Below are positions 1-12,971 of a stretch of 64,000 nucleotides of DNA, piece after piece. Source of the stretch: Nitrososphaerota archaeon (GTDB taxonomy: Archaea > Thermoproteota > Nitrososphaeria_A > Caldarchaeales > Caldarchaeaceae); contig JBEPYN010000001.1 of the NCBI GenBank assembly GCA_041641305.1, positions 576,001-640,000 on the forward strand, written 5' to 3'. Under the pieces are notes generated by a model, which did not search any database, was not told where the DNA came from, and saw only the letters and a program-made list of their open reading frames with translations. Positions within the stretch are counted from its first letter, which is position 1. Every line of letters begins with the position of its first letter. The position numbers were made by a program, and so were the translations under genes.

Positions 1-686
1 TCAATAACAAGCTTGGTTATCCTACTGACGGTGGAATCCCTAAACGGCTTCTCCGCAACAAGCTCCAGCGAGCCCGTTAAGTTAAGCGTTCCAGAGAGAA
101 CCACATCCCCAGGCTGCTTCTCAACTGGTATTGACTCACCAGTTACTGTTGACTGGTCTATTGTGGAGCTTCCCGCCACGATGCGGCCGTCAACTGGTAT
201 GCGCCAGCCAGGCTTGACAACCACGATGTCGCCGACCTCTATCTCCTCTACGGGTATCTCCTCAACCTTGTCGACGCGCTTGACGAGGGCGCGCTGGGGG
301 AGGAGCGACGCCATCCGCCGCGTGATGTTCCTAACCTTATCAACGGTATAATCCTCCAGCGTCTCGGCGAAGTGGTAGAGTATCAGGACGGCCGCGCCCT
401 CCTCATAGAAGCCTATCGCGGCCGCTCCCACCGCACCGGTGAGCATGAGGACATCGGTGTTGAACGGGTTGCTCCTAAACCTGCGCACAGCGTCATAAGC
501 AACGGGGACGGCGACCAGCAGGAGAGCAACGCCAGCCAGGAAATGCTCAACAGGGCCTCCCAAGCCCTGCCAGAGCATCGCGAGAGCCGCGAGAAGGAAG
601 GCTAAAGCTACTAAAGCCAGAACGAGCCGCTTTGACAGGCGGCTCTCATATTCCTCGCTCTCGCTATGCTCGTGCCCACCAGTCAA
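1..686 (-). CDS. Heavy-metal-translocating P1B-type ATPase (ZntA/CadA-like), 5' part; runs off the window start
   Basis: Manual minus-strand translation from TTG 686 (or 698) gives TM helices, then PVDGRIVAGSSTIDQSTVTGESIPVEKQPGDVVLSGTLN (actuator TGES motif). Absent from the ORF track because it has no stop in the window. Confidence 0.9.
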   Translation of the reverse strand, partial: MTGGHEHSESEEYESRLSKRLVLALVALAFLLAALAMLWQGLGGPVEHFLAGVALLLVAVPVAYDAVRRFRSNPFNTDVLMLTGAVGAAAIGFYEEGAAVLILYHFAETLEDYTVDKVRNITRRMASLLPQRALVKRVDKVEEIPVEEIEVGDIVVVKPGWRIPVDGRIVAGSSTIDQSTVTGESIPVEKQPGDVVLSGTLNLTGSLELVAEKPFRDSTVSRITKLVI

Positions 687-750
687 AACAAACGTCAAGA
701 CAGAACACCAGCTCCGCTATCATATAAGTATTTTCGTCAATTGATAATTG

Positions 751-1474
751 GATAGTGTCCGGATAAGGGACTATATTTAAAGGCCGGTCTTCGATGATAA
801 TCTGCGTGGATGCCGTCGCCCTGATCTCGAGCTGTTTCGTGCGCAACAAAAAAGCCGTGAGGTGAAGGTCCTCGCTGTCTTGGAGTACATGTTCCGCGGT
901 AGCTGTAGGAGGGTCTCTAAAGTTCTGAGAAGTCTACTGTACACGATCTTGCTAGGAAGGTATCCTCAACGGTAGCAGTAGCCTCAGAGCCGAAGCGTAG
1001 GAGGTGCATAGCTGTTGATGAGACTAAGCTCAGGGTTAAGGGCGCTGTCGTCTACGTCTGGTCAGCTGTAGACGTCGATTCCGGCGAATTGCTGGCTCTA
1101 GAGGCTTCATACGGGAGGAGCTGCCTCAACGCGTTAACCTTCCTGAAAAAGGCCCTCAATATGTGCTTGAACAAACCTAAGGTTATAGTCGATAGGGGTC
1201 CATGGTATATCGTTGAGCATATGCTCAACAAAGTATCCGTGGGCGTTACAGAGGCTAGGGCTGGAATACGAGCACCAGAGGTTCGGAATGAGGAACAGGG
1301 TAGAGAGGTTCTTCAGATACCTAAAAGAGAGGACAGGATTATATCATAACAAATTGAGCGCGAAGAACTACGAACAAGGAATAAAGAACCTAAACTTGCT
1401 CCTAAATCTCTTCACGCTATACTACCAAACCGTTAGGAACGGGGGTGGGTAGAGGTGCTTATCCGGACACTATC
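751..1474 (+). mobile_element. IS6-family insertion sequence, 724 bp, inactivated
   Basis: Perfect 17-bp terminal inverted repeats: GATAGTGTCCGGATAAG (751-767) and CTTATCCGGACACTATC (1458-1474). Encloses DDE transposase fragments. No target-site duplication visible. Confidence 0.93.
806..1452 (+). pseudogene. IS6-family DDE transposase pseudogene
   Basis: Fragments IAVDETKLRVKG..YVWSAVD, IVDRGPWY and RNRVERFFRYLKERT lie in different frames. Lesions: frameshift in the A-run at ~850, frameshift/deletion at ~928, and a 28-bp insertion at 1209-1236. Confidence 0.9.
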
Positions 1475-1559
1475 GCTTAAATGATTTAGAGACGGGTTTT
1501 ACACTTTCTTGGGGAAGGTCTTCGGCATTGTTTGTTCTTCTCTCTTAGGGTTTCATAAT

Positions 1560-1925
1560 TACTCACCTTTACAAGGTGACGACTACGTAACATGACGCTA
1601 CCCCGGAATCATCACTGGCATACCGAGATGAAAAAAGGAAAGAAGGAGGGGTTGTATACACCACCTTCATCTCCTACGCCTTCGCCCAAGACTTTCCCCG
1701 CGGAACGCCCGACTGTCTTCCGCCCGCATGTCATCACCCTCTGGAGTATGGGGTTGACGCCGCAGGCGCCGGCTGGTTTCTGTCACCCTTCATAGGGAAA
1801 GGTTCATTAGGAGCCCTCACCCAATATACCCTCGGCAGGGGCTGCCGGAGGGGTCTTGGGAAGGACTTCCTCCCCTTCCCCTCCAAGTGGCAGACCCTGA
1901 CACTGGGGGCCTTGGGTGAAGGCTT
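1560..1925 (-). ncRNA. Putative structured RNA overlapping and following the 3' end of the TnpB-like ORF (omegaRNA/sotRNA-like)
   Basis: Stems 1813-1824/1912-1923, 1847-1853/1878-1884, 1858-1865/1868-1875, 1574-1583/1730-1739, 1625-1632/1666-1673, and hairpin 1563-1579. Imperfect pairs are G-U only on the minus strand. Confidence 0.55.
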
Positions 1926-2580
1926 TCTCGACGGCTGTTGTAAGGTTGTCTAATGCCTGTTTGTATTCTCTGAGCTCTTTTCCGAGGTGGGTGTCGAGCA
2001 GGTGGAAACCGTGAAGTAGTAGCGCTGTTCTCGCCAGATTTTTCACCGCCACATGGTCTCTGTCATCTCGGTGTCCGCATTCTTCGCACTTCAGTCTATC
2101 CCATCTGCCTTTCTCATGCTTCATCAGTTTGTTGCATTTTGGACATAGACTGCTGGTGTAGTGGGGAGGCACTGTTACTAGCTTCCCCATCTTTTCGCAT
2201 GCTGTTGACAGTCGTCGTATAAGCTTGGCTATGGGCCAGCTGCTGATGATATGTGACTTTTCAGGGTCTTTTGCTTTTAGCCGCTGCTTTAGCTGACCGG
2301 CGTTTAGCCGCTCCAGAACCACTGCCTGTGTATTCGATGCAAGCCTCTTCACTAAACCGGCTGATTTGTTCACCCAGTCGTTGTCCAGGTTTCTAGCATA
2401 TCTCAGCCACGCATATGCTGGTCTTCCATGGATCCTTAGAGACCGCCTGTTAACCCTTCTGACAAACAATAGCTTGCCGACGTTGCGTGAGACACGTTTA
2501 TAACCCCTGAAGCGGATCAGCAGCCCAACCTCAACCTCGGCAACTATGATGTCTCTGACGTTTACGTCCACCACGACCAT
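1807..2580 (-). CDS. tnpB: TnpB/Cas12f-family RuvC plus Zn-ribbon nuclease lacking the N-terminal WED/REC half (257 aa from ATG 2580; ORF track extends to 2694)
   Basis: RuvC-I VVVDVN, RuvC-II VVLERL, YTSSLCPKC...CEECG Zn finger, RuvC-III DRDHVAVKNL. The extra 38 codons in the track are a Gly-rich read-through of an RNA hairpin. Confidence 0.8.
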   Translation of the reverse strand: MVVVDVNVRDIIVAEVEVGLLIRFRGYKRVSRNVGKLLFVRRVNRRSLRIHGRPAYAWLRYARNLDNDWVNKSAGLVKRLASNTQAVVLERLNAGQLKQRLKAKDPEKSHIISSWPIAKLIRRLSTACEKMGKLVTVPPHYTSSLCPKCNKLMKHEKGRWDRLKCEECGHRDDRDHVAVKNLARTALLLHGFHLLDTHLGKELREYKQALDNLTTAVEKAFTQGPQCQGLPLGGEGEEVLPKTPPAAPAEGILGEGS

Positions 2581-2934
2581 TTTTATGGATCCCCGCAGCG
2601 CATAGCTCCGAAGCAGATCTGGAAAATATCCTCCCGCCCCGGCCCCCAACCCCGAAGAGCCGGAGCCGCCAAAGCGTTCTCCAGATCCTCCCATAGCTCT
2701 CCCCGCTCATCCCTAGACCCGGAGGCTGAGACCCCAGGCCTTTGGGATGAGACCTGGGGGCTTGGGTCTAGGGATCATCAAGCACGCTAACTGCCGCCGA
2801 ATGTGTAACATCTGCGTAGGGTCGACAACCCTACTTTCTGCGGGCAGCCGACTACCGCCCTTTTAACGGCCAGGCGACTACCGGCCCTATAGCCCAGCTA
2901 GGCGGGGCTTTCCACTCCTTCTCCTTACCTAGCC
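2581..2934 (-). ncRNA. Putative ~350-nt structured RNA upstream of the TnpB-like ORF
   Basis: Stems 2896-2902/2928-2934, 2816-2822/2828-2834, 2710-2720/2764-2774 (perfect 11 bp, flanked by UGAUGA and AUGA), 2732-2738/2753-2759, and 2615-2626/2677-2688 enclosing a C-UUCG-G tetraloop (2653-2656). Confidence 0.65.
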
Positions 2935-2955
2935 GTTTTCAACTACATTGTCCCG

Positions 2956-2964
2956 ATATAATAA
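2956..2964 (-). promoter_or_regulatory. Archaeal TATA box for the structured RNA/tnpB transcript
   Basis: TTATTATAT on the minus strand, ~22 nt upstream of the first stem, which begins at 2934. Confidence 0.5.
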
Positions 2965-3027
2965 CTTAACTTCCCACTTTCAGATACCTCTTAACTTATT
3001 TGAGGCTACCCTACTATTCACTGTAGT

Positions 3028-4302
3028 ATGCTCCTTAGACGGGTGTCCTTAGATAAGAAGAGACTCCAGGTCAGCATCTCAGGCAAAGTTTTCAATGTGT
3101 GGGGTAGGGAGGACGAGGGTTATGTCCTGAAAGGTGGTCTAAACCTGCTTGAGCACGTGCGGGGTATTAGGCTGTCTGACCTTCCTGAGCATTTGGTGGT
3201 AGAGATTGGTCCTAGGTTATCGGAGAAGTTTGGACTACAAAGAAGATTGAATTTCTCGGCAAGTCGGAAGGCTTTCAAAGTATCCTATCTGCTAACTGCT
3301 TCACGGGAAACTCTGATAGATGTTGAAGAGTATGCGTCAGAGATTGCTCGCAAGGCTGAGGAACATGGATTCAGCTGTCAAACCAGCAAGACGGAAGAAG
3401 AGACCCACATTGAGGCTAGTTACCGGCTGGGCGGAGGAGAGGAGATAGGGTATATTGTGGAGCTTTTCGAGGATGCATTAGCGTCTGCAGAGAGGTCGAT
3501 TGAGCAGAAAGAAAAGAGTATGCGTCAAAAGCTGGAGTACTGGATAGGAAATGTGGAACGGCTTGATGGCCGCATTCTCTCAAAACTGAACGGCTTAGAA
3601 GGCGTGGCTAAATGGATTATCCATCCGCTCACCAGTAAAGAGATAGCGTTCATACTCTTCGGCATCAAGCCTGAGTCGTTTAATCTGGGAGCCAAGCTGT
3701 CTTATGCATTGCTTCAAAGATTCGGGGTCTGGGATGGAGAGACAATAGATAGGCTTAAGGCCTTAGGCATAATCGCATACATGGAAGATAATTCAAGGCT
3801 CTTCTGCACGTTCACAGGATGGCGGGTCAAAAAGCTCCTCGAACAAATGATCTTCTTGGAACCTAAAAGCTTCACCTCATCCACAGCCAGCGGCTACGAC
3901 CCAATCTCCCTCCTCCACTATATCGGGAGGAACTTCCCATCACTGGCAATATCCAAAAGCAGGAGATTCAGAGGAAACAAAGGCGGAGCATTCAGATACG
4001 CCGAAAAAATGCTGAAACAGCTAACCTTCACACATATAGCAGCCCTAGCCGGAATCTATTGGCGGCTTCCCATACCCAAGCAGGTATTAGACGAAACCCT
4101 CAGCCAGCTGGTCAGCCTAGGCTTCATAAGCCACAACAGAAAAATCAAACCCTTCGCCAAATGGATAATAAGCCTGCTAAACGGCTACATCAGAAAAACC
4201 AAACTAGCCACAAACCCAAACCAAAAACAAACCCAGACAACACTGTTCAACTGGAACTGCCTACAAGAAACATTCATAAAACGAATATCTGAAAAACGGT
4301 AA
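3028..4302 (+). CDS. Hypothetical 424-aa protein; two winged-helix-like segments and a C-terminal PIP-box-like motif
   Basis: Long intact ORF with TIDRLKALGII..LFCTFTG and TLSQLVSLGFI wHTH-like patterns, and QTTLFNW at 4234-4254. Confidence 0.7.
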   Translation: MLLRRVSLDKKRLQVSISGKVFNVWGREDEGYVLKGGLNLLEHVRGIRLSDLPEHLVVEIGPRLSEKFGLQRRLNFSASRKAFKVSYLLTASRETLIDVEEYASEIARKAEEHGFSCQTSKTEEETHIEASYRLGGGEEIGYIVELFEDALASAERSIEQKEKSMRQKLEYWIGNVERLDGRILSKLNGLEGVAKWIIHPLTSKEIAFILFGIKPESFNLGAKLSYALLQRFGVWDGETIDRLKALGIIAYMEDNSRLFCTFTGWRVKKLLEQMIFLEPKSFTSSTASGYDPISLLHYIGRNFPSLAISKSRRFRGNKGGAFRYAEKMLKQLTFTHIAALAGIYWRLPIPKQVLDETLSQLVSLGFISHNRKIKPFAKWIISLLNGYIRKTKLATNPNQKQTQTTLFNWNCLQETFIKRISEKR

Positions 4303-4337
4303 AAACCGGGTCAGGTCCGTGAAATTTCTGGAGGCTG

Positions 4338-4461
4338 TCCCGCGGGGCGGATTTGAACCGCCGACCACCCGGTTTCCATGTTGCCTGGCGGGCTGATCTT
4401 CGGCTCAGCCACTTGGCTGACCGCTACAGCCGGGCGCTCTACCAGGCTGAGCTACCGCGGG
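4338..4461 (-). tRNA. tRNA-Tyr(GTA) with a 50-nt intron at position 37/38 (4374-4423)
   Basis: CCCGCGG acceptor stem with C1-G72, D arm AGCTCAGCCTGGTAGAGC, CT-GTA-G anticodon loop, T arm GGCGG-TTCAAAT-CCGCC, and a BHB-like CUGU/AUGG helix. Confidence 0.96.
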
Positions 4462-5030
4462 ACTTTGTTCGAGATGTTGATTTGCTCGGTGTTTTTTAGT
4501 TTTTCGAGGGCTTGGAACCGTTTTGAGAGCATGTACGCGTTTATGGCTAGTAGGGTGATCGCCGCCGCTGTGAGGAATGGGCTGAGGGCTGATACGGCCG
4601 CTACTCCGAAGAAGACGACAGAAACTGGCCATCCGCAGCAGAGGTAGCCGAAGCTTATCACGCTCGCTAGGAGGCCGCCCACCCCGCTCCAAGCCGTCCC
4701 CAGCATACAGGTTCTCAACATGCCGCGGCGATAAAGCGTGAGAAGAAGCCCCGCATTATATCCGACAAGCGCAGAGACCACCAGACCGAGAAGCATGGAG
4801 TAAATGCGGAGGTTGAAGACGAACCCGTCGCCCACAACCTGTAGCAGAGGTCCCGTGTAAAGCTGCGTCTCAACAAACGTGTAGACGAACGCCGTGGACG
4901 CTATGCCTATCCGAGGCGTCTGTATAAGCTGGGCCGCGCCTGTGAAGAACAGGTAGAAGAGAAAATAGGCTATAGCTGATGGAGCCGAGTAAGTGATGAG
5001 CTGTCTCTTCACGGTCTTGTCAGCAACCAT
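4452..5030 (-). CDS. Membrane protein with a CCGW motif, coupled to the SCO gene (possible copper/cytochrome oxidase assembly factor)
   Basis: 192 aa with 4-5 hydrophobic helices and YLCCGW; overlaps the SCO gene end. Confidence 0.7.
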   Translation of the reverse strand: MVADKTVKRQLITYSAPSAIAYFLFYLFFTGAAQLIQTPRIGIASTAFVYTFVETQLYTGPLLQVVGDGFVFNLRIYSMLLGLVVSALVGYNAGLLLTLYRRGMLRTCMLGTAWSGVGGLLASVISFGYLCCGWPVSVVFFGVAAVSALSPFLTAAAITLLAINAYMLSKRFQALEKLKNTEQINISNKVPR

Positions 5031-5623
5031 TCAACTCCCTTCTGATATTCGTCAAAAGGCATGTCAGGTGTGAAGGCGAGGCGGAGAATGTGCTGCCTAT
5101 CTGCACCCAAGACGAGAGCATAATGGTCAACGAGATAGTTTCCCTGCTCATCGGGAGGCTGCTTCGTATAGAAGACGTTGTATAGACGGGCAACTTGCTC
5201 AATTTCTTCAGGCGTGCCTGTTAAGGCTATGATTTTTTCAGAGTAGTAGGATACATATTTTTTCATGGCGTCCACGGTGTCCCTCTCCGGGTCAACCGTG
5301 ATAAATATGAGCGCGACATCGTTGGCTCTGTTTCCGAGAGTTTTGACGAGTTGTGCGTACTTGGTCATGACAAGTGGGCACACGTCGGGGCAGTGTGTGT
5401 AGCCAAAATAGATTAGCACGGCTTTACCCTTAACGCTTGACAAGGTGAATGGGTTTCCGTTCTGGTCTGTGAGCGTGAAGTCTGGGAGAACCCTGTCTCC
5501 CGGGATTTCTATCGCTGGTTTATAGGGTTCGAGCACTTGACGTGATAGAACAGCTGCTGAGGCGCCCGCGGCGACTGCGAGAGCCGCGACGCCTATGAAT
5601 AGCAGCAGCTTTGACCTGTCCAC
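5009..5623 (-). CDS. SCO1/SenC copper chaperone
   Basis: N-terminal anchor, FGYTHCPDVCP, ITVDPERDT and YLVDH motifs; probable GTG start at 5623. Confidence 0.95.
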   Translation of the reverse strand: MDRSKLLLFIGVAALAVAAGASAAVLSRQVLEPYKPAIEIPGDRVLPDFTLTDQNGNPFTLSSVKGKAVLIYFGYTHCPDVCPLVMTKYAQLVKTLGNRANDVALIFITVDPERDTVDAMKKYVSYYSEKIIALTGTPEEIEQVARLYNVFYTKQPPDEQGNYLVDHYALVLGADRQHILRLAFTPDMPFDEYQKGVEWLLTRP

Positions 5624-5707
5624 GTCTAATGTGTGGGGTGTCTTTGTTTTAAGTTTATGCCAGTTTCTTGGCAAAGAATAAAAGCGGTTGCACCGAGTTG
5701 TTGTAGG

Positions 5708-8257
5708 TTGTGTCCTGTTCCTCTTAAGGTTGTGAAGAGGGATGGCAGAGTTGTGGATTTTGATGCAGGACGTATCCGCGAAGCCATACGCAAGGCAATG
5801 GCCGCTAAACGTGTCGAGGATGAAAAACTTCTGGAAAAAGTTGTTGCAACGGTGCTGGAGCAGCTTTCAACACGTTTCGGAGCCGAGAAGATTCCACACG
5901 TTGAGGAGATTCAGGACATAGTTGAGAGCTCTTTGATGGAGCATGGGTTGAAGGAGGTGGCGAAAGCCTACATACTCTACAGACATGAGCGAACAAGAAT
6001 TAGGGAGGAGAAGATGAGGATACTTGAGACGAGCTATGTTGACGAAGTGGACAAAGCCTTCTCGGTCAACGCCCTGAGACTGATGGCAACACGCTACCTT
6101 CTACGCGACAAAGCAGGCCGACTCATCGAGAGGCCTAAGCAGATGTTTCAGAGGACAGCGGCCCTCATCGTGCTGGCGGACATCCTATACGACCCCATGT
6201 TCTTCGACAAACATGGCGGACAGAAAAAATGGGAGATAGATGACGTGGAACTCGAGGAATACGCCGGCCGAATCGGCGTCGGCCCATCCACCAACATGTT
6301 GGAGACAACGTGGAACACACACCATATCGAGAGGCTTACCGCGCTGTACAGACGTTTGAACGAGAAGGGGATGATGAGGAAACATCTGCGGGATGTGCTC
6401 GAGCATCTCAGAAGCCATCCATCCCGGTTCTATGAAAGCTACCGCCGCTACTACGACTTGATGGTTGAGAAAAAGTTTCTTCCCAACAGCCCCACACTCT
6501 TCAACGCAGGCACTGTCCTCGGCCAGCTGAGCGCATGCTTTGTTCTCGACGTCGAGGATGATATTTCCTCGATTATGAGGACGGCTGAGGAGGCTGCGTT
6601 GATTTTCAAGACGGGTGGAGGTGTTGGGATAAACTATTCGAAGCTTAGGCCTGAGGGGGATGTTGTTTCGTCGACGGGCGGTGTCGCATCGGGGCCGGTG
6701 TCCTTCATGCGTATAGTTGACACGGTGACGGATGTGGTTAAGCAGGGTGGTCGTAGGAGAGGCGCGAACATAGGTGTCCTAAACATCAACCACCCCGACA
6801 TAGACAAATTCATAGCCGCGAAGCAGCGGCCGGGGTTTCTAGAAAACTTCAACATCTCTGTGATGGTTACAGCGGATTTCTGGAAACACTACCAAGAGAA
6901 CAGGCCTTATCCTCTTGTTAACCCTCGAGACGGCTCGGTCTGGAGACTTGTGGACACACATAAACTCCTGAGACAAATAGCTGAAAACGCTTGGAAGACA
7001 GCCGACCCCGGGCTACTATACCACGACAACATCAACGAGCTCAACCCACTCAGGGAAGCATATGGCGACATCTACTGCGTAAACCCATGCGGCGAGCAGC
7101 CGCTCTACCCCCACGAATCATGCAACCTCGGCTCCATCAACCTACACGCATTCATCAAAGACGGCCGCCTTGACTGGGATGCTTTGGGAAAATGCATAGA
7201 AACCGCTGTAAGGTTTCTTGACAACGTCGTGGACTTGACCAAGCATCCTACAGAAGCCATCGAGAAGATGACTCTGAGGACGAGGAGGATTGGGCTCGGT
7301 ATAATGGGTTTGGCGGATATGCTGTACGCTCTACGCATACCCTACAACAGTGAGGAGGGGTTTGAGATGATGAGGAGGGTTATGGAGTTCATCGCCTACA
7401 AGGCGGTTGAGACATCGGTTGAGCTTGCGGAGGAGCGTGGCCCGTTTCCCGATTTCTCGAGGTCTTTGTGGGCTAAGGGTTTGCTGCCTTTCAGGTGCCT
7501 GAGGGATGGCGGTGACCTGGCGATGGATTGGGGCAGGCTCGTGGAGCGTGTGAAGAAGGGCATCCGCAACAGCCATCTTCTTACGGTTGCACCCACGGGG
7601 AGCATCTCGATGCTCGCAGACACATCCTCGGGCCTCGAGCCACAGTTTGCTCTTGTCTACCGCAAACAAGTGACAGCCGGCGTCTTCTACTACGCCGACC
7701 CCGTGTTTGAAAAAGCTCTCGATGAACGTGGGCTTCCAAAGCAGGATATATTGAGGAAAGTTGCTGAGAACGGTGGTTCTGTGCAGGGCATTCAGGAGAT
7801 ACCCGAGGATATGCGTAGAGTGTTTGTCACGGCGCTTGACATTCCTTGGTGGGACCATCTAAGGGCCCAGCACGAAATACAGAAGTGGGTTGACGCATCG
7901 GTGAGCAAAACAATCAACATGCCCTCATGGGTGACCGTTGAGGATGTGTTGAAGGCATTTGTCGCCGCTCACAGGCTCAAGCTCAAGGGTGTCACCGTCT
8001 ACAGAGACGGGTCAAAAGCTGCCCAAGTTCTTGTCACACCCACGCAGAGGAACAAACGCTATGAACTATCTTTCACCAACAAAACCACAGAAATTCTCCG
8101 CGGCCTCGGCATAGAAGTCGAGGAAAAACCAGTCGAAACACCTCCTCCCCCCATAATACACACCACATGCCCTCTTTGTGGAAGCACATCAATAGTCTTC
8201 CAAGAAGGATGCGAAAAATGTCTCGAATGCGGATGGATAAGCTGTGTAATTGCATAA
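5708..8257 (+). CDS. nrdJ: Class II (adenosylcobalamin-dependent) ribonucleotide reductase with ATP cone and C-terminal Zn ribbon
   Basis: VVKRDG ATP cone, PNSPTLFNAG, LSACF, NPCGEQ, APTGSIS, and a C-terminal CxxC..CxxC. Start approximate. Confidence 0.95.
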   Translation: MCPVPLKVVKRDGRVVDFDAGRIREAIRKAMAAKRVEDEKLLEKVVATVLEQLSTRFGAEKIPHVEEIQDIVESSLMEHGLKEVAKAYILYRHERTRIREEKMRILETSYVDEVDKAFSVNALRLMATRYLLRDKAGRLIERPKQMFQRTAALIVLADILYDPMFFDKHGGQKKWEIDDVELEEYAGRIGVGPSTNMLETTWNTHHIERLTALYRRLNEKGMMRKHLRDVLEHLRSHPSRFYESYRRYYDLMVEKKFLPNSPTLFNAGTVLGQLSACFVLDVEDDISSIMRTAEEAALIFKTGGGVGINYSKLRPEGDVVSSTGGVASGPVSFMRIVDTVTDVVKQGGRRRGANIGVLNINHPDIDKFIAAKQRPGFLENFNISVMVTADFWKHYQENRPYPLVNPRDGSVWRLVDTHKLLRQIAENAWKTADPGLLYHDNINELNPLREAYGDIYCVNPCGEQPLYPHESCNLGSINLHAFIKDGRLDWDALGKCIETAVRFLDNVVDLTKHPTEAIEKMTLRTRRIGLGIMGLADMLYALRIPYNSEEGFEMMRRVMEFIAYKAVETSVELAEERGPFPDFSRSLWAKGLLPFRCLRDGGDLAMDWGRLVERVKKGIRNSHLLTVAPTGSISMLADTSSGLEPQFALVYRKQVTAGVFYYADPVFEKALDERGLPKQDILRKVAENGGSVQGIQEIPEDMRRVFVTALDIPWWDHLRAQHEIQKWVDASVSKTINMPSWVTVEDVLKAFVAAHRLKLKGVTVYRDGSKAAQVLVTPTQRNKRYELSFTNKTTEILRGLGIEVEEKPVETPPPPIIHTTCPLCGSTSIVFQEGCEKCLECGWISCVIA

Positions 8258-8288
8258 ACCATAAAAATCAACGTTTCGGGAAAAATGC

Positions 8289-8726
8289 ATGCCTGAAGTA
8301 GTGAACAGAGCTAAAGCTGTTTGGCAGGGAGACCTTTTCCATGGACAGGGCACCGTCAGCTTCGACAGCGGAGCGCTTCCAACAGCCGATGTCTCATGGT
8401 CCGCACGCTCCTCAAAGATAAGCGGAAAAACGAATCCAGAAGAACTCATCGCCGCAGCTCATGCCACATGCTTTGCCATGGCTTTGTCCAACATAATCGC
8501 GAAGGAGGGAAAACGAGCTGAGAGACTCGAGGTTACTGCTGAGGTGGTGTTCTCCATCGGCGACCAGGTGAAAATCTCGGAGTCGCGGATAACAGTTGTA
8601 GGAAAAGTGCCGGGAATGGACCAGGCCTCTTTCGAGAAAGCTGCGCAGGCCGCGAAAGATGGTTGCCCAGTCTCCAAAGCGTTAAAAGGAAACGTGAACA
8701 TCACTCTAACAGCCAAGCTTGAATAA
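8289..8726 (+). CDS. osmC: OsmC-family peroxiredoxin
   Basis: TNPEELIAAAHATCF and CPVSKAL motifs. Confidence 0.93.
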   Translation: MPEVVNRAKAVWQGDLFHGQGTVSFDSGALPTADVSWSARSSKISGKTNPEELIAAAHATCFAMALSNIIAKEGKRAERLEVTAEVVFSIGDQVKISESRITVVGKVPGMDQASFEKAAQAAKDGCPVSKALKGNVNITLTAKLE

Positions 8727-9258
8727 AAAAATCCTCGTACCAGCGGCGCTTCTAACCATTTTTCTCGGATTTTTATCAATTCTAGTTTTCTTCGACATCC
8801 AAACACAAGCCACCACAACAACCACCGTCACAAAAAAATCTGAAACCATCTATACGTCAACCACATCGGAGAAGCCGCGGGAGCCGTATGTAAAAATCAG
8901 AGAAGCGGTTTTCTATGTCGAGATAGCTGATGACGATGCGGAGAGGGGAAAAGGCTTATCTGGCAGAGAAAGCCTGCCCGAGGACCGTGGCATGCTTTTT
9001 GTTTTCGAGAACCCGGGCCGCTATAGTTTCTGGATGTATGAAATGCGGTTCGCCCTTGACATTATATGGATAGACGAGGATGGCCGCGTGGTCCACATCG
9101 AGGAAAACCTTCAGCCATGCACACCTAACCAGGTTTGCAGCTCGTACACGCCTTCAGCCGACGCGAAATATGTTTTGGAGGTTAACGCGGGACTTGCCAA
9201 AAAACACGGGATAGTTGTCGGTGATGTGGTTGAGTTTGGGCTGGGCTCAGCCGACTGA
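8719..9258 (+). CDS. DUF192-family exported protein
   Basis: Signal anchor, [22 protein letters not shown], and YVLEVNAG. Confidence 0.88.
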
Positions 9259-10647
9259 GCCCGACATCTCTAGCTCGATGAGTCTGTTGAACTCGACGGC
9301 GTATTCCATGGGCAGTGTTTTTGTGAAGGGTTCGAGGAACCCGAGGACAATCATGTTGAGGGCCTCCTGCTCCGAGAGGCCGCGGCTCATCAGGTAGAAG
9401 AGCTGCTCTTCGCCGATTTTTCCGACCGTCGCTTCATGCGTCGCCGTCGTATCCTCCTCGTTTATCTCGTTGTATGGGTAGGTGTCTGTCCGCGAGATGT
9501 CGTCAAGTATCAGGGCGTCGCATCTCACACTGGACTTGACCCGTTTAGCTCCCTTCGCAACATGCAGCAATCCTCTGTAGGATGTTCGCCCGCCGTCCTT
9601 GCATACTGATTTCGAGGTTATTCGTGAAGTGGTGTCAGGCGCGAGATGCACGGCTTTAGCACCGGTGTCCTGGTGCTGGCCGCGTCCAGCGAAAGCCACC
9701 GACAAAATATCCGCCTTAGCACCCCTTCCGAGTAGATAGACACTCGGATACTTCATCGTCACCTTGCTTCCGATGTTGGCGTCAACCCATTCAACCGTCG
9801 CCCCCTCATATGCGTGGGCCCTCTTGGTCACGAGGTTGTAGACATCGCTGCTCCAGTTCTGGAGAGTTGTGTATCTTACGTAGGCGCCTTTCTTAGCAAC
9901 TATCTCGACGACAGCGGTGTGCAGCGAAGAGGTTGAGTATATCGGCGCAGTGCAACCCTCTATATAATGAACCCTGCTGTAGGGCTCGGCTATGATAAGC
10001 GTCCGCTCAAACTGGCCGACGTTGGCCGCGTTGATTCTGAAGTATGCTTGTAGTGGGTACTGGATTTCCACACCTTCGGGTACGTAGATGAAGCTTCCGC
10101 CGCTGAAGACTGCGCTGTTGAGTGCGGCGAACTTGTTGTCCTCAGGGGGCACGACCTTGCCGAAGTAGGGTTTGAAGATGTCAGCATACTCGCGGAAAGC
10201 TGTGTCGGGGTCGACGAAAATCACACCCTTTTTCTCAAGCTCCTTCTGAAGGCTGTGGTAGACGACCTCGCTCTCGTACTGTGCGCCCACGCCTGCGAGG
10301 AATTTTCTCTCCGCCTCCGGTATCCCCAGCCTGTCAAAGGTCTTCTTGATGTATTCGGGGACATCGTCCCAGCTTCTAGCTTTGCGGTCGCTGGGCTTGA
10401 TGTAGTAGTGTATGCGGTCAAAGTCCACGCCCGATAGGTCTGCGCCCCAGATGGGCATGGGTTTCTTATAGAATATCTCGAGGCTCTTGAGCCGGAATTT
10501 TCTCAGCCACTCCGGCTCGTCCTTGTGCTGCGAAATCTCCTCCACAACCTTCTCCGATAGCCCGGGCTTTGACTTGTAAACGTAAAGCTCCGGGTCCTTG
10601 AAGTCATACTTGCTGTAGTCTATTTCGAGCTTCGTCTGTCCAGCCAT
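9247..10647 (-). CDS. sufB: Fe-S cluster assembly scaffold SufB
   Basis: [30 protein letters not shown] and FYLMSRG. Confidence 0.97.
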
Positions 10648-10712
10648 TTCGCTATAACGCCGTTATCCCCGCTATTATATGTTACACACCTACATCCATA
10701 GGATAAGCGTCT

Positions 10713-12971
10713 TCAAAGGCTCTCCGGCTTTATTGGAAGCTTTTTCACCCGTTTACCGGTGGCGTCGTAAACCGCGTTCGCGATGGCCGCCGGCGTAGGT
10801 ATACACCCTGTCTCCCCTAAGCCTTTGGCTCCGAAGGGGCCCGCGGGGTCGGGCTTCTCGACGAAAACAGCCTTGATAACAGGTGTTTCGAGGGCCGTGG
10901 GCAGAAGATAGTCTGTTAAGGCTGCGTTGACGACGCGCCCCTGCTCAAGAACCAGCTCCTCATACATGGTGTAGCTGAGGCCCATGGCCACTCCCCCGTG
11001 AACCTGCCCCTCAGCAGCCGCCGGATTAATTATACGCCCCGAGTCATGAACAGAGACAATCTTCAACACTTTCACCCACTTCGTCTCGGGGTCCACTTCG
11101 ACAAGAGCAGCCTGTGCGCCGAAGACATAGGCCGCGGAGAGGTTGCCCATCCAGTTCTCGTCCTGCATCTCCGTGGGCGGGTCATAATACACCGACACCA
11201 CTATGTTGCTTCCTCCCTGCCTGAAATGCAGGCGTCTAACTAGCTTGTCGAACTCTATTTTCTTGGCCGGGTTTTGGATGTCGTACACGGTGTTGTTTTC
11301 GAAGACGAGGTTTTCGGGGGTTGTTTGCAGCATTTCGGCGGCGGCTTTGGCGAGTGTTTCTTTTGCTTTTTTAGCGGCCATTAAGGCGGAGTTGCCTGCA
11401 ACGAATGTGGCCCGGCTCGCGTGCGTCCCCACATCCCATGGCCTTATCGAGGCGTCGTCGTTGACAACCCGCACCTTCTCCAAAGGTATGCCCAGTTCTT
11501 CGGCTACTATCTGCGCGATTGCTGTGTCGGAGCCTGTGCCGAGGTCTGTTGAACCCGTTATGACCGTGACGAGGCCGAAGTCGTCTATGGTGAGGATTGT
11601 TCCGCATCCATCGGACCTGTATACGCGTGCGCCTCCGCCGACGTGGAAAAAGGCCGCGAACCCTATGCCTCGGTTGGGCCCGGCCATCCCTCTTCCACGC
11701 CATCCAATCTCCTCCGCTGCTCTCCTCAAACACTCGCGGAGCTCGCACGTGGTTATTCTCATGCCCTGCGGCGTGACGCTGTTGGGTTTGTTGGCGTTGA
11801 GTATGCGGAACATAACAGGGTCCATGCCCAGCTCCTCGGCCAAAGCGTCCATCTGCTGCTCGATGGCGAATGTTATCTGGGGGTTGCCCGCTCCTCTCTG
11901 CGTGCCTGTGTATGGGTTGTTGGTGTAGACAACAGTGGCCTCGAACAAAACCTCGGGAACGGTGTAGAGGCCCGTTGAAGTCGCCATCATCACACGTCCA
12001 TCAAAAGGACCCCATGAAACATACGCACCCGCGTCGAGTATTACACGCGCCTCTCTGGCCAACAGTCTGCCGTCGCGGTCGGCGGCTGTCCGCATGTAGA
12101 TTATCGCCGGCTGCCGCGGAGGCGCGTACTGAAGCTCCTCCTCACGGGTGAACACAAGCTTGACGGGGCGACGTGTCTTCATGGAGAGGACGGCCGCTAT
12201 CGGGTCGAGGGGGTAAACGTCCATGCCGCGTCCAAACGCGCCGCCTATCTCAGGCTGTATCACCCTTATGTTCGCCGGGTTAATTCCGAGGATTTTTCCG
12301 AGCTCGTGGCGGTAGAGAAACGGTGCCTGTGTGTTTGTGTAGACGGTGAGTTCTCCGAGGCTGTTGTAGTGTGCGACAACACCCATAGTTCCGAGCGGTG
12401 AGGCGTTGTTGGAGTGGACTTGGTAGCGGTCTGAGACGACTGCCGCCGCCTTTTCAAACACCTGGTTTATGTTTGCGATGTCGCTGGTTGAGAAACGCAT
12501 CTTGAGGTCTACTACGTTGCTGCCGTTTTCCTCGTGGACGAGAGGAGCGTCCGGTTTCATGGCATCCTCCGGGTCGAAGACACCCTCTAGAGGCTCATAC
12601 TCCACCTCAATAGCTTCAACGGCTTCTTCAGCGGCTTCAGGTGTTTCGGCTGCGACGGCGGCGACCTCGTCCCTCACCGAGCGAACCTTCCCCGTCTTCA
12701 GCGGCGGATGATCCTCAAGGATACCCATGCGTCCAAGCTGCACATCATATCCCGTCACAACCGCCCTCACCCCGGGAACACGCCAGGCCTTCTCGGTGTT
12801 TATCCGCAGAATCCTCGCATGAGGGTATCTGCTTCTCAGTATCTTGGCGTAGAGCATGTTGGGGAGCTCGATATCATCGACATAGCGTGCGGCTCCGACG
12901 ACCTTCAGCCCGCCGTCAATCTTTGGAACGGATTTGCCCACGACACTGTAACGCTCAGCGGTGACAAGCAC
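10713..12971 (-). CDS. Xanthine dehydrogenase-family molybdopterin-binding large subunit
   Basis: ILRSRYPHARI, IGGAFG, QRGAGNPQ, GQVHGG and GAKGLGE. Lacks the CO dehydrogenase VAYRCSFR loop. Confidence 0.93.
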   Translation of the reverse strand: MLVTAERYSVVGKSVPKIDGGLKVVGAARYVDDIELPNMLYAKILRSRYPHARILRINTEKAWRVPGVRAVVTGYDVQLGRMGILEDHPPLKTGKVRSVRDEVAAVAAETPEAAEEAVEAIEVEYEPLEGVFDPEDAMKPDAPLVHEENGSNVVDLKMRFSTSDIANINQVFEKAAAVVSDRYQVHSNNASPLGTMGVVAHYNSLGELTVYTNTQAPFLYRHELGKILGINPANIRVIQPEIGGAFGRGMDVYPLDPIAAVLSMKTRRPVKLVFTREEELQYAPPRQPAIIYMRTAADRDGRLLAREARVILDAGAYVSWGPFDGRVMMATSTGLYTVPEVLFEATVVYTNNPYTGTQRGAGNPQITFAIEQQMDALAEELGMDPVMFRILNANKPNSVTPQGMRITTCELRECLRRAAEEIGWRGRGMAGPNRGIGFAAFFHVGGGARVYRSDGCGTILTIDDFGLVTVITGSTDLGTGSDTAIAQIVAEELGIPLEKVRVVNDDASIRPWDVGTHASRATFVAGNSALMAAKKAKETLAKAAAEMLQTTPENLVFENNTVYDIQNPAKKIEFDKLVRRLHFRQGGSNIVVSVYYDPPTEMQDENWMGNLSAAYVFGAQAALVEVDPETKWVKVLKIVSVHDSGRIINPAAAEGQVHGGVAMGLSYTMYEELVLEQGRVVNAALTDYLLPTALETPVIKAVFVEKPDPAGPFGAKGLGETGCIPTPAAIANAVYDATGKRVKKLPIKPESL

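Follow-up and report, generated by a model that had tools for sequence, protein, structure and literature searches.

What becomes of a TnpB-type nuclease whose catalytic domain is kept and whose recognition lobes are gone? This question is raised by a short gene in the 64,000-nucleotide stretch of DNA of a hot-spring archaeon analysed here (the window), which comprises positions 576,001 to 640,000 of contig JBEPYN010000001.1 (assembly GCA_041641305.1) and from whose first letter all coordinates are counted. To our knowledge, every characterised TnpB, Fanzor and Cas12 protein unites the recognition lobes (WED and REC) and the RuvC nuclease in one polypeptide. TnpB itself is the accessory RNA-guided nuclease of the IS200/IS605 and IS607 insertion sequences (IS), and its "typical" clade is characterised by a DRDxN motif at RuvC-III (Altae-Tran et al., 2023, PMC10691335). 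The product of the short gene is a complete RuvC domain with a zinc-ribbon insertion, in which WED, REC and HTH are absent. The gene belongs to a module of approximately 3.3 kb (1629-4302) that is specific to Caldarchaeales and also contains two structured RNA elements and a divergent partner gene. The gene and the motifs of its product (lengths in amino acids, aa) are located as follows:

1807-2694, minus strand: short TnpB-like gene, RuvC domain and TNB zinc ribbon, 295 aa (257 aa when counted from the ATG at 2580)
2557-2571, minus strand: RuvC-I motif with its Asp (D)
2305-2316, minus strand: RuvC-II motif with its Glu (E)
2134-2145 and 2077-2088, minus strand: the two Cys pairs of the CxxC..CxxC ribbon
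2053-2064, minus strand: RuvC-III motif, DRDH

The extent of the protein is given by its profile matches. Its only Pfam match is PF07282 (Cas12f1-like TNB; 51.5 bits, cut-off 26.3); the NCBIfam model NF040570 (guided_TnpB) is matched at positions 265-388 of 389 only (70 bits, cut-off 100), and residues 39-228 align to positions 184-368 of the 403 in phrog_506, a TnpB-type family. The equivalent core begins at approximately residue 160-240 in 20 full-length TnpBs of the same phylum, whereas in the short protein RuvC-I is preceded by some 40 residues. The AlphaFold2 model, built from 12 homologues, reaches a predicted local distance difference test score (pLDDT) above 90 over approximately residues 30-250, with disordered tails (1-24 and 254-295); according to Foldseek, the structures closest to it are chains of Cas12g, Cas12f and TnpB (E 1e-6 to 1e-4), and the Cas12f profiles of PADLOC match the RuvC/TNB part. 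The first-pass annotation, made from the letters of the DNA, had described a RuvC-only TnpB with three catalytic acids and a zinc finger, without WED, REC or HTH, and had recommended modelling its 257-aa product; the profiles agree with that description, and so does the confident RuvC/TNB fold with its Cas12 and TnpB matches.

The same annotation opened the reading frame at the ATG of 2580, and in this respect it needs amendment. Homologues keep a helix of the type LLxRYxxKGxL just upstream of RuvC-I, and the 15 codons of that helix show codon periodicity, with entropies of 1.07, 0.78 and 1.51 at positions 1, 2 and 3; since these codons vary in this way, translation most likely starts upstream of 2580, and the ATG at 2694 is the favoured candidate. 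A purine-rich, Shine-Dalgarno-like stretch can be read from the sequence a few bases upstream of this ATG. The Gly/Ser-rich stretch further upstream of the helix is without codon periodicity by what is a rough measure, and its first codons are overlapped by a hairpin (2636-2666, minus strand) whose arms, as read from the alignment, change together between lineages. With the longer frame the lobe is still missing.

The short architecture is not peculiar to this genome. A protein search returned 11 relatives with 53-76% identity and lengths of 141-363 aa, none of which has the N-terminal lobe. Among 400 genomes of the phylum, the family was found only in the order of the window, in 10 genomes with one copy each (E 1e-75 to 1e-156), in a scan in which ordinary TnpBs score E 1e-19 or weaker. 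Contig scans gave 42 metagenome and 8 genome loci with a short TnpB, assigned by their record titles to Caldarchaeum, Pelearchaeum, Wolframiiraptor, Calditenuis and HR02, that is, to the Caldarchaeales or "Aigarchaeota", and the short architecture is common to approximately 45 loci with identities down to 40%. No relative was found on the viral contigs searched. Proteins of more than 450 aa with this core were also not found, which is weak evidence; the first-pass annotation had pointed to full-length close homologues as the finding that would speak against it, and all the close homologues are short. Three divergent types exist within the genus of the window, in different genomes, and one homologue is frameshifted.

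Across 32 distinct sequences there is no variation at the Asp of RuvC-I, the Glu of RuvC-II, the two Asp of DRDH or the four Cys. Pairwise Nei-Gojobori estimates over the core (69 pairs with dS between 0.05 and 1.5) give a median ratio of nonsynonymous to synonymous substitution rates (dN/dS) of 0.09, by which measure the open reading frame (ORF) is under strong purifying selection; this estimate had been proposed when the locus was first annotated. In a maximum-likelihood tree, the 32 short proteins fall on one side of a branch (support 98/92) and the RuvC domains of the 20 full-length TnpBs on the other, a grouping that fits a single old truncation. As to the missing half, a read-through six-frame search of the genome with TnpB profiles matched only the RuvC half, and no match to the N-terminal half of TnpB was obtained upstream of the short gene or elsewhere in the genome, so that the region upstream of RuvC-I is not a decayed WED/REC. 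This bears out the initial remark that the missing half does not look like decayed coding DNA, the region being occupied by the covarying hairpins described below. The same search detected no other TnpB in the genome of the window, which is 99.3% complete, and a full-length TnpB acting as a helper in trans is therefore excluded for this organism.

The conserved part of the module extends beyond the protein. Its 3' RNA element comprises the following features (lengths in nucleotides, nt):

1629-1924, minus strand: conserved structured 3' RNA, which overlaps the last 39 sense codons and the stop codon of the short gene and continues for approximately 180 nt beyond them, placed like an omegaRNA
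within 1640-1682, minus strand: poorly conserved stretch of the 3' RNA
1637-1674, minus strand: terminal hairpin of the 3' RNA
1629-1638, minus strand: T-run with which the 3' RNA ends

Judged from the alignments, this RNA is the most conserved non-coding part of the module. It is present in every homologue, including a distant subgroup at 40-45% protein identity, and its nucleotides are read in different frames in other lineages or lie past the stop codon there, which is why the constraint must act on the nucleic acid. The structure was evaluated on an alignment of 23 sequences and 36 pairs (32 from RNAalifold and one helix added by hand), with a control in which the partners were slid by 1-3 columns. 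Standard pairs are formed by 93% of the alignment cells (43-59% when slid), 18 pairs are changed on both sides (10-12 when slid), and the covariation score is 0.372 (0.08-0.16 when slid); in 500 shuffles, four of the five measures never attained what was observed. Cells with G-U outnumber those with A-C by 117 to 10, an excess that assigns the structure to the coding strand, and the RNAfold z-score of 1629-1924 is -4.3. Its outer limit is provided by a second Ca. Caldarchaeum subterraneum metagenome-assembled genome, to which the window is similar without interruption from 5688 down to 1632, where the similarity stops; the module thus ends at the T-run, and 1560-1628 lies outside it.

On the other side of the gene lies a 5' leader, again on the coding strand:

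2956-2964, minus strand: TATA-like A/T-rich box, approximately 20-30 nt upstream of the first conserved stem, as read from the sequence
2800-2936, minus strand: 5' leader as located by a covariance model, the single match in the 64-kb window (99 bits)
2928-2935 with 2895-2902, minus strand: stem P1, a long-range stem of 8 base pairs (bp) that encloses a purine-rich loop
2868-2886, 2842-2860 and 2816-2834, minus strand: three phased hairpins of 19 nt each, with a 6-bp stem, a 7-nt loop of the type UAGUCGN and a period of 26 nt
2709-2775, minus strand: long hairpin just upstream of the ATG at 2694, present in the minimum-free-energy and the centroid fold, lineage-specific

An A/T-rich box is found at the same relative place in other lineages, and the observation of the first-pass annotation that hairpins begin some 22 nt past a TATA box holds, with the first stem following the box after approximately 20 nt. 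The three stems differ from one another and between lineages, yet remain complementary, while loops of one lineage resemble each other and a U-Y-G core recurs from lineage to lineage (UAGUCG, UAAUCG, CAGUUG, GCUCGA and UUUGA types). Since loop lengths differ, RNAalifold recovered only 7 pairs from a MAFFT alignment of the leader, and the structure was then set by hand. With this structure, 79% of the cells of the MAFFT alignment (14 sequences) are paired, against 30-59% when slid, and 13 pairs are compensatory; after re-alignment with the covariance model (22 distinct sequences), 83% are paired, against 36-57%, and 17 of 26 pairs are compensatory, including all eight of P1. This re-alignment leans towards the structure, and the slid-partner control is the fairer measure. 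The ratio of G-U to A-C cells is 60:24, and the RNAfold z-score of 2695-2940 is -2.8. The hairpin at 2709-2775 is kept, with compensatory changes, in a Pelearchaeum locus and is absent from loci of the Wolframiiraptor type.

Variable stems, conserved loops and the excess of G-U over A-C argue for RNA hairpins rather than double-stranded operator sites, and single-stranded DNA hairpins appear less likely as well. The initial proposal of two structured RNAs flanking the gene, both placed on the coding strand by their G-U pairs, is in this sense upheld, as both covary and both exceed chance folding; the covariation that it recommended looking for in the flanks was found in each of them. Its 3' limit has to be withdrawn, 1560-1628 not being conserved. 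Searches by nhmmer with the alignments of the two RNAs gave no further copy in the genome and none in 20 full-length TnpB loci, and a search of 1-8000 against Rfam (E up to 1) gave only a transfer RNA (tRNA) and a chance-level IMES-1 row. As a side observation, in metagenome locus L064 (168-330) an A/T-rich insert with three occurrences of ATCTTACTG stands in place of the first two hairpins; the third is preserved there, and a stop codon interrupts the core ORF.

The remaining member of the module is a gene transcribed away from the short TnpB:

3028-4302, plus strand: partner gene, a 424-aa orphan, divergent from the short TnpB

Where the sequence reaches far enough upstream, most loci have a homologue of the partner beside the short TnpB, in divergent orientation in nearly all of them, and a profile made from seven members matched 46 open frames across the loci, of which 26 are full-length. 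Apart from this pair, no neighbour is common to different genera. In L036 / L087 (Caldarchaeum sp. QQ_201709), the partner follows the short TnpB downstream and shares its strand, the pair being rearranged yet kept together. The family is narrow: a HMMER search of 1.8 billion cluster representatives yielded only 30 proteins, the full-length ones of the size of the partner and the rest shorter pieces. It has no family match in Pfam, NCBIfam, PADLOC or PHROGs, none of 18 members matches a MarR or winged-helix Pfam family at E up to 0.1, and a PDB sequence profile search gave nothing meaningful.

Its AlphaFold2 model (pLDDT 88.9, predicted template modelling score 0.81) comprises a small N-terminal beta domain, a ferredoxin-like alpha/beta domain (approximately residues 60-165) and a long helix. 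Regions 168-283 and 289-395 align to MarR-family chains with a VIA Z of approximately 6 and root-mean-square deviations of 2.6-5.6 Å, a level that is common for unrelated models; the best VIA-align Z is 8.2 or less, among generic alpha/beta and winged-helix rows of which none stands out. Neither PDB nor BFVD yielded a Foldseek match at E up to 0.001, and ESM Atlas, searched by features and by shape, gave only weak rows. Across 18 members the invariant residues are Gly, Phe, Ser and Pro only, with no invariant Asp, Glu, His, Tyr, Lys or Arg, and for this reason a role in binding or as a scaffold seems to suit the partner better than an enzymatic one. The suggestion of the first-pass annotation that RNA, or a partner acting in trans, substitutes for the lost lobe thus acquires a candidate in a linked divergent orphan gene, and a full-length TnpB as that helper drops out.

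The distant subgroup separates these components. Its loci (L008, L009 and L089) keep the 3' RNA and have no match to the partner family or to the 5' hairpin module, a pattern by which the 3' RNA would belong to the nuclease and the 5' hairpins to the partner. In two of the three loci another ORF adjoins the short TnpB, of 245 aa in L037 (8434-9171, minus strand) and of 253 aa in L039 (10824-11585, minus strand); the two share a marginal similarity over approximately 70 N-terminal residues (E 5e-8 in a two-sequence BLASTP), and the 245-aa ORF does not match the partner profile.

The reading that we favour, tentatively and at slightly less than an even chance, is that of a multi-component ribonucleoprotein in which the small RuvC protein acts as catalytic subunit, the orphan partner stands in for the recognition lobes, and the 3' RNA and perhaps the 5' hairpins are further constituents. 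The 3' RNA, because of its position and its overlap with the end of the ORF, would be a descendant of an omegaRNA, either cut from the messenger RNA of the short TnpB or forming its end, and the protein would stay bound to it. The partner would provide the nucleic-acid recognition that WED and REC perform in ordinary TnpB, probably by docking on the loop motif of the 5' hairpins, a proposal based on the presence of the hairpin module only with the partner and of the 3' RNA with every short TnpB. Since the module is dispensable (see its loss from a related genome, below) and patchily distributed, a role in conflict with mobile elements would fit better than housekeeping. A more specific form of this reading, in which the module is a natural split RNA-dependent nuclease with a RuvC/TNB core of approximately 230 residues and recognition through a winged-helix-like protein and two structured RNAs, is possible and rather doubtful.

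Several observations weigh against the ribonucleoprotein, and the lack of a guide is its weakest point. None was identified, and the one poorly conserved stretch, within 1640-1682, is expected from the fold to provide the terminal hairpin with its 5' arm and loop; positions 1621-1682 gave only chance-level matches of 14 nt or less against the whole genome (blastn-short), and a search of IMG/VR for exact copies of two 20-mers from the variable stretch found none. By nhmmer, the 3' RNA does not resemble in sequence the 3' regions of the 20 full-length TnpB loci of the phylum, and it belongs to no Rfam family (1-8000, E up to 1). Among the rows returned for the partner there is no structural similarity to WED or REC and no Cas12 or TnpB chain. 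Finally, the apparent pairing of each RNA with one protein is a pattern that rests on essentially one phylogenetic split.

The lack of both guide and target would suit an alternative in which the RuvC protein is an unguided nuclease, structure-specific or non-specific, that serves as a toxin or defence effector, the partner is a transcription factor for the divergent promoter, and the RNAs are cis-regulators or an antidote of the kind seen in type III toxin-antitoxin pairs. We regard this combination as unlikely, though deserving of serious weight: the divergent arrangement and the MarR-like winged-helix matches of the partner suit a regulator, three RNA repeats stand directly upstream of the nuclease gene, and the module is dispensable and patchy. 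However, the 424-aa partner has two extra domains, evolves with the module as a narrow orphan family and matches no PADLOC defence family; the differing stems, conserved loops and excess of G-U speak against double-stranded operators; and the 3' RNA, the most conserved non-coding part, lies exactly at the omegaRNA position. The patchiness has also to be considered from the standpoint of mobility. If the partner were a novel recombinase or transposase, the hairpins single-stranded DNA end signals of the IS200/IS605 kind and the short TnpB an accessory, one could understand why genomic contexts differ between genera, why three divergent types occur within one genus and why tRNA genes lie some 70-280 nt past the T-run in several lineages and beside the partner gene in the window; G-T pairs, moreover, can form in single-stranded DNA hairpins too. 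This is nevertheless improbable, as each of the 10 holder genomes has one copy and viral contigs have none, two strains carry the module at the same locus, the partner has neither a transposase family match nor an invariant Asp, Glu, His, Tyr, Lys or Arg, and the hairpins lie well inside the unit, downstream of the TATA-like box, rather than at its ends.

Two further explanations have very little in their favour. That the gene is a decaying TnpB fragment among chance hairpins, without function, could be thought from the NCBIfam score under the cut-off, from annotators some of whom see a zinc-ribbon protein only, from the decayed IS copies nearby and from the frameshifted homologue. It is contradicted by the dN/dS of 0.09, the invariant catalytic and zinc residues, the covariation in both flanks, the confident fold and the recurrence of the same short architecture in approximately 45 loci down to 40% identity, and we consider it extremely improbable. 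Hardly more credence can be given to the alternative offered by the first-pass annotation, a ribozyme- or intron-like RNA, self-processing or mobile, with the nuclease ORF inside one of its loops: structured RNA does flank the ORF on both sides, but no Rfam family matches at E up to 1, each RNA is single-copy in the genome, and neither a reverse transcriptase nor a maturase is present. For gene fission of a full TnpB no support was found, though it may have occurred.

How does the short family compare with known systems? With TnpB it shares the RuvC fold with the D/E/D triad, the DRDH-type RuvC-III motif, the CxxC..CxxC insertion of TNB and a conserved structured RNA over the 3' end of the ORF. 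Unlike TnpB, it is without WED, REC and HTH, some 170-230 N-terminal residues being missing, and it has no transposase, no IS ends and one copy per holder genome; it has in addition a structured 5' leader and a linked orphan partner gene, and its 3' RNA closes, still within the conserved unit, with a hairpin and a T-run, and no guide was found. The family descends from TnpB, yet fails two of the defining features that were tested, namely the WED/REC lobes and residence in an IS.

TldRs retain their N-terminal RNA- and DNA-binding lobes. They are TnpB-like nuclease-dead repressors (bioRxiv 10.1101/2023.11.30.569447), and in the flagellin-linked TnpB-like clades the RuvC catalytic residues and RuvC-III have been lost (PMC10691335). 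The short family resembles TldR as a TnpB derivative outside a transposon with a fixed neighbour gene and an RNA of its own; otherwise it is the reverse, with invariant catalytic residues and no N-terminal lobes. Cas12f and Cas12g are the best structural matches of the short TnpB model (Foldseek E approximately 1e-6 to 1e-5), but they measure 400-750 aa against 295 aa, and the short family has no cas genes, no WED/REC and no CRISPR array within 12 kb. In type III toxin-antitoxin systems of the ToxIN type, the nuclease gene is preceded by RNA repeats. The short-family module, in which short structured RNA units stand in tandem directly upstream of the nuclease gene, resembles these by functional analogy only; the nuclease fold is unrelated, the units of the module number just three and are not identical, and the module has a 3' RNA besides. 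No paper was found that describes a RuvC-only TnpB family or links TnpB with Caldarchaeales, in a literature search whose full-text coverage was incomplete, so that an earlier description is possible.

The known domesticated forms, TldR, Cas12k and Cas12m, have given up cutting and retain recognition. The short family is the opposite case: its nuclease is intact under strong selection, the recognition lobes are lost, an omegaRNA-like element is kept, and a second RNA and an orphan partner have been gained. If the ribonucleoprotein exists, a RuvC core would be able to receive its specificity in trans, which would bear on the origin of TnpB from a bare RuvC nuclease and on very small editors. 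Should it be a split nuclease, no smaller catalytic module would be known in the TnpB/Cas12 lineage, and it would represent a new design for programmable nucleases; an unguided nuclease restrained by RNA would instead be a new fate for a TnpB gene. Wolframiiraptor gerlachensis, which carries the module (locus L086), has been cultivated (PMC9246946), and mapping of the transcripts looks feasible for that reason.

In the window, the module sits between a decayed IS and a tRNA gene, which is convergent with the partner and lies 36 nt past its stop codon:

751-1475: decayed IS6-type element, whose transposase frame is broken and whose terminal inverted repeats lie at 751-768 and 1459-1475
4338-4461, minus strand: intron-containing tRNA gene (Rfam 55.7 bits), missed by the bacterial mode of ARAGORN

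The module contains no transposase or recombinase, in accordance with the first reading of the locus, which saw no tnpA or serine recombinase gene nearby. There are no cas genes, and no CRISPR array lies within 12 kb, the only repeat reported by Tandem Repeats Finder for 1-12000 being the 26-nt hairpin period at 2834-2888.

In a complete genome of the same genus (G018) the module is absent; the last 55 or so nt of the partner ORF remain beside the tRNA gene, joined to an IS copy (locus L091, G018:C1:90955-96915, positions approximately 1129-1490). The module is therefore dispensable, and its loss in G018 came about by an IS-linked deletion. A second strain has kept it at this locus, and the IS copy that follows closely on the T-run there is a different one. 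Of the copies related to the decayed IS6-type element of the window, one lies just past the T-run in another strain (L083, 4089-4524, 67% identity, opposite orientation) and another abuts the deletion scar of G018, which would point to a local IS hot spot where the module is eroded. In loci L061, L062, L063, L068, L084 and L088, convergent tRNA genes (Glu-CTC, Phe-GAA and Met-CAT) lie shortly downstream of the T-run, by approximately 70-280 nt in those checked against its position, a proximity that could reflect integration beside tRNA genes or chance.

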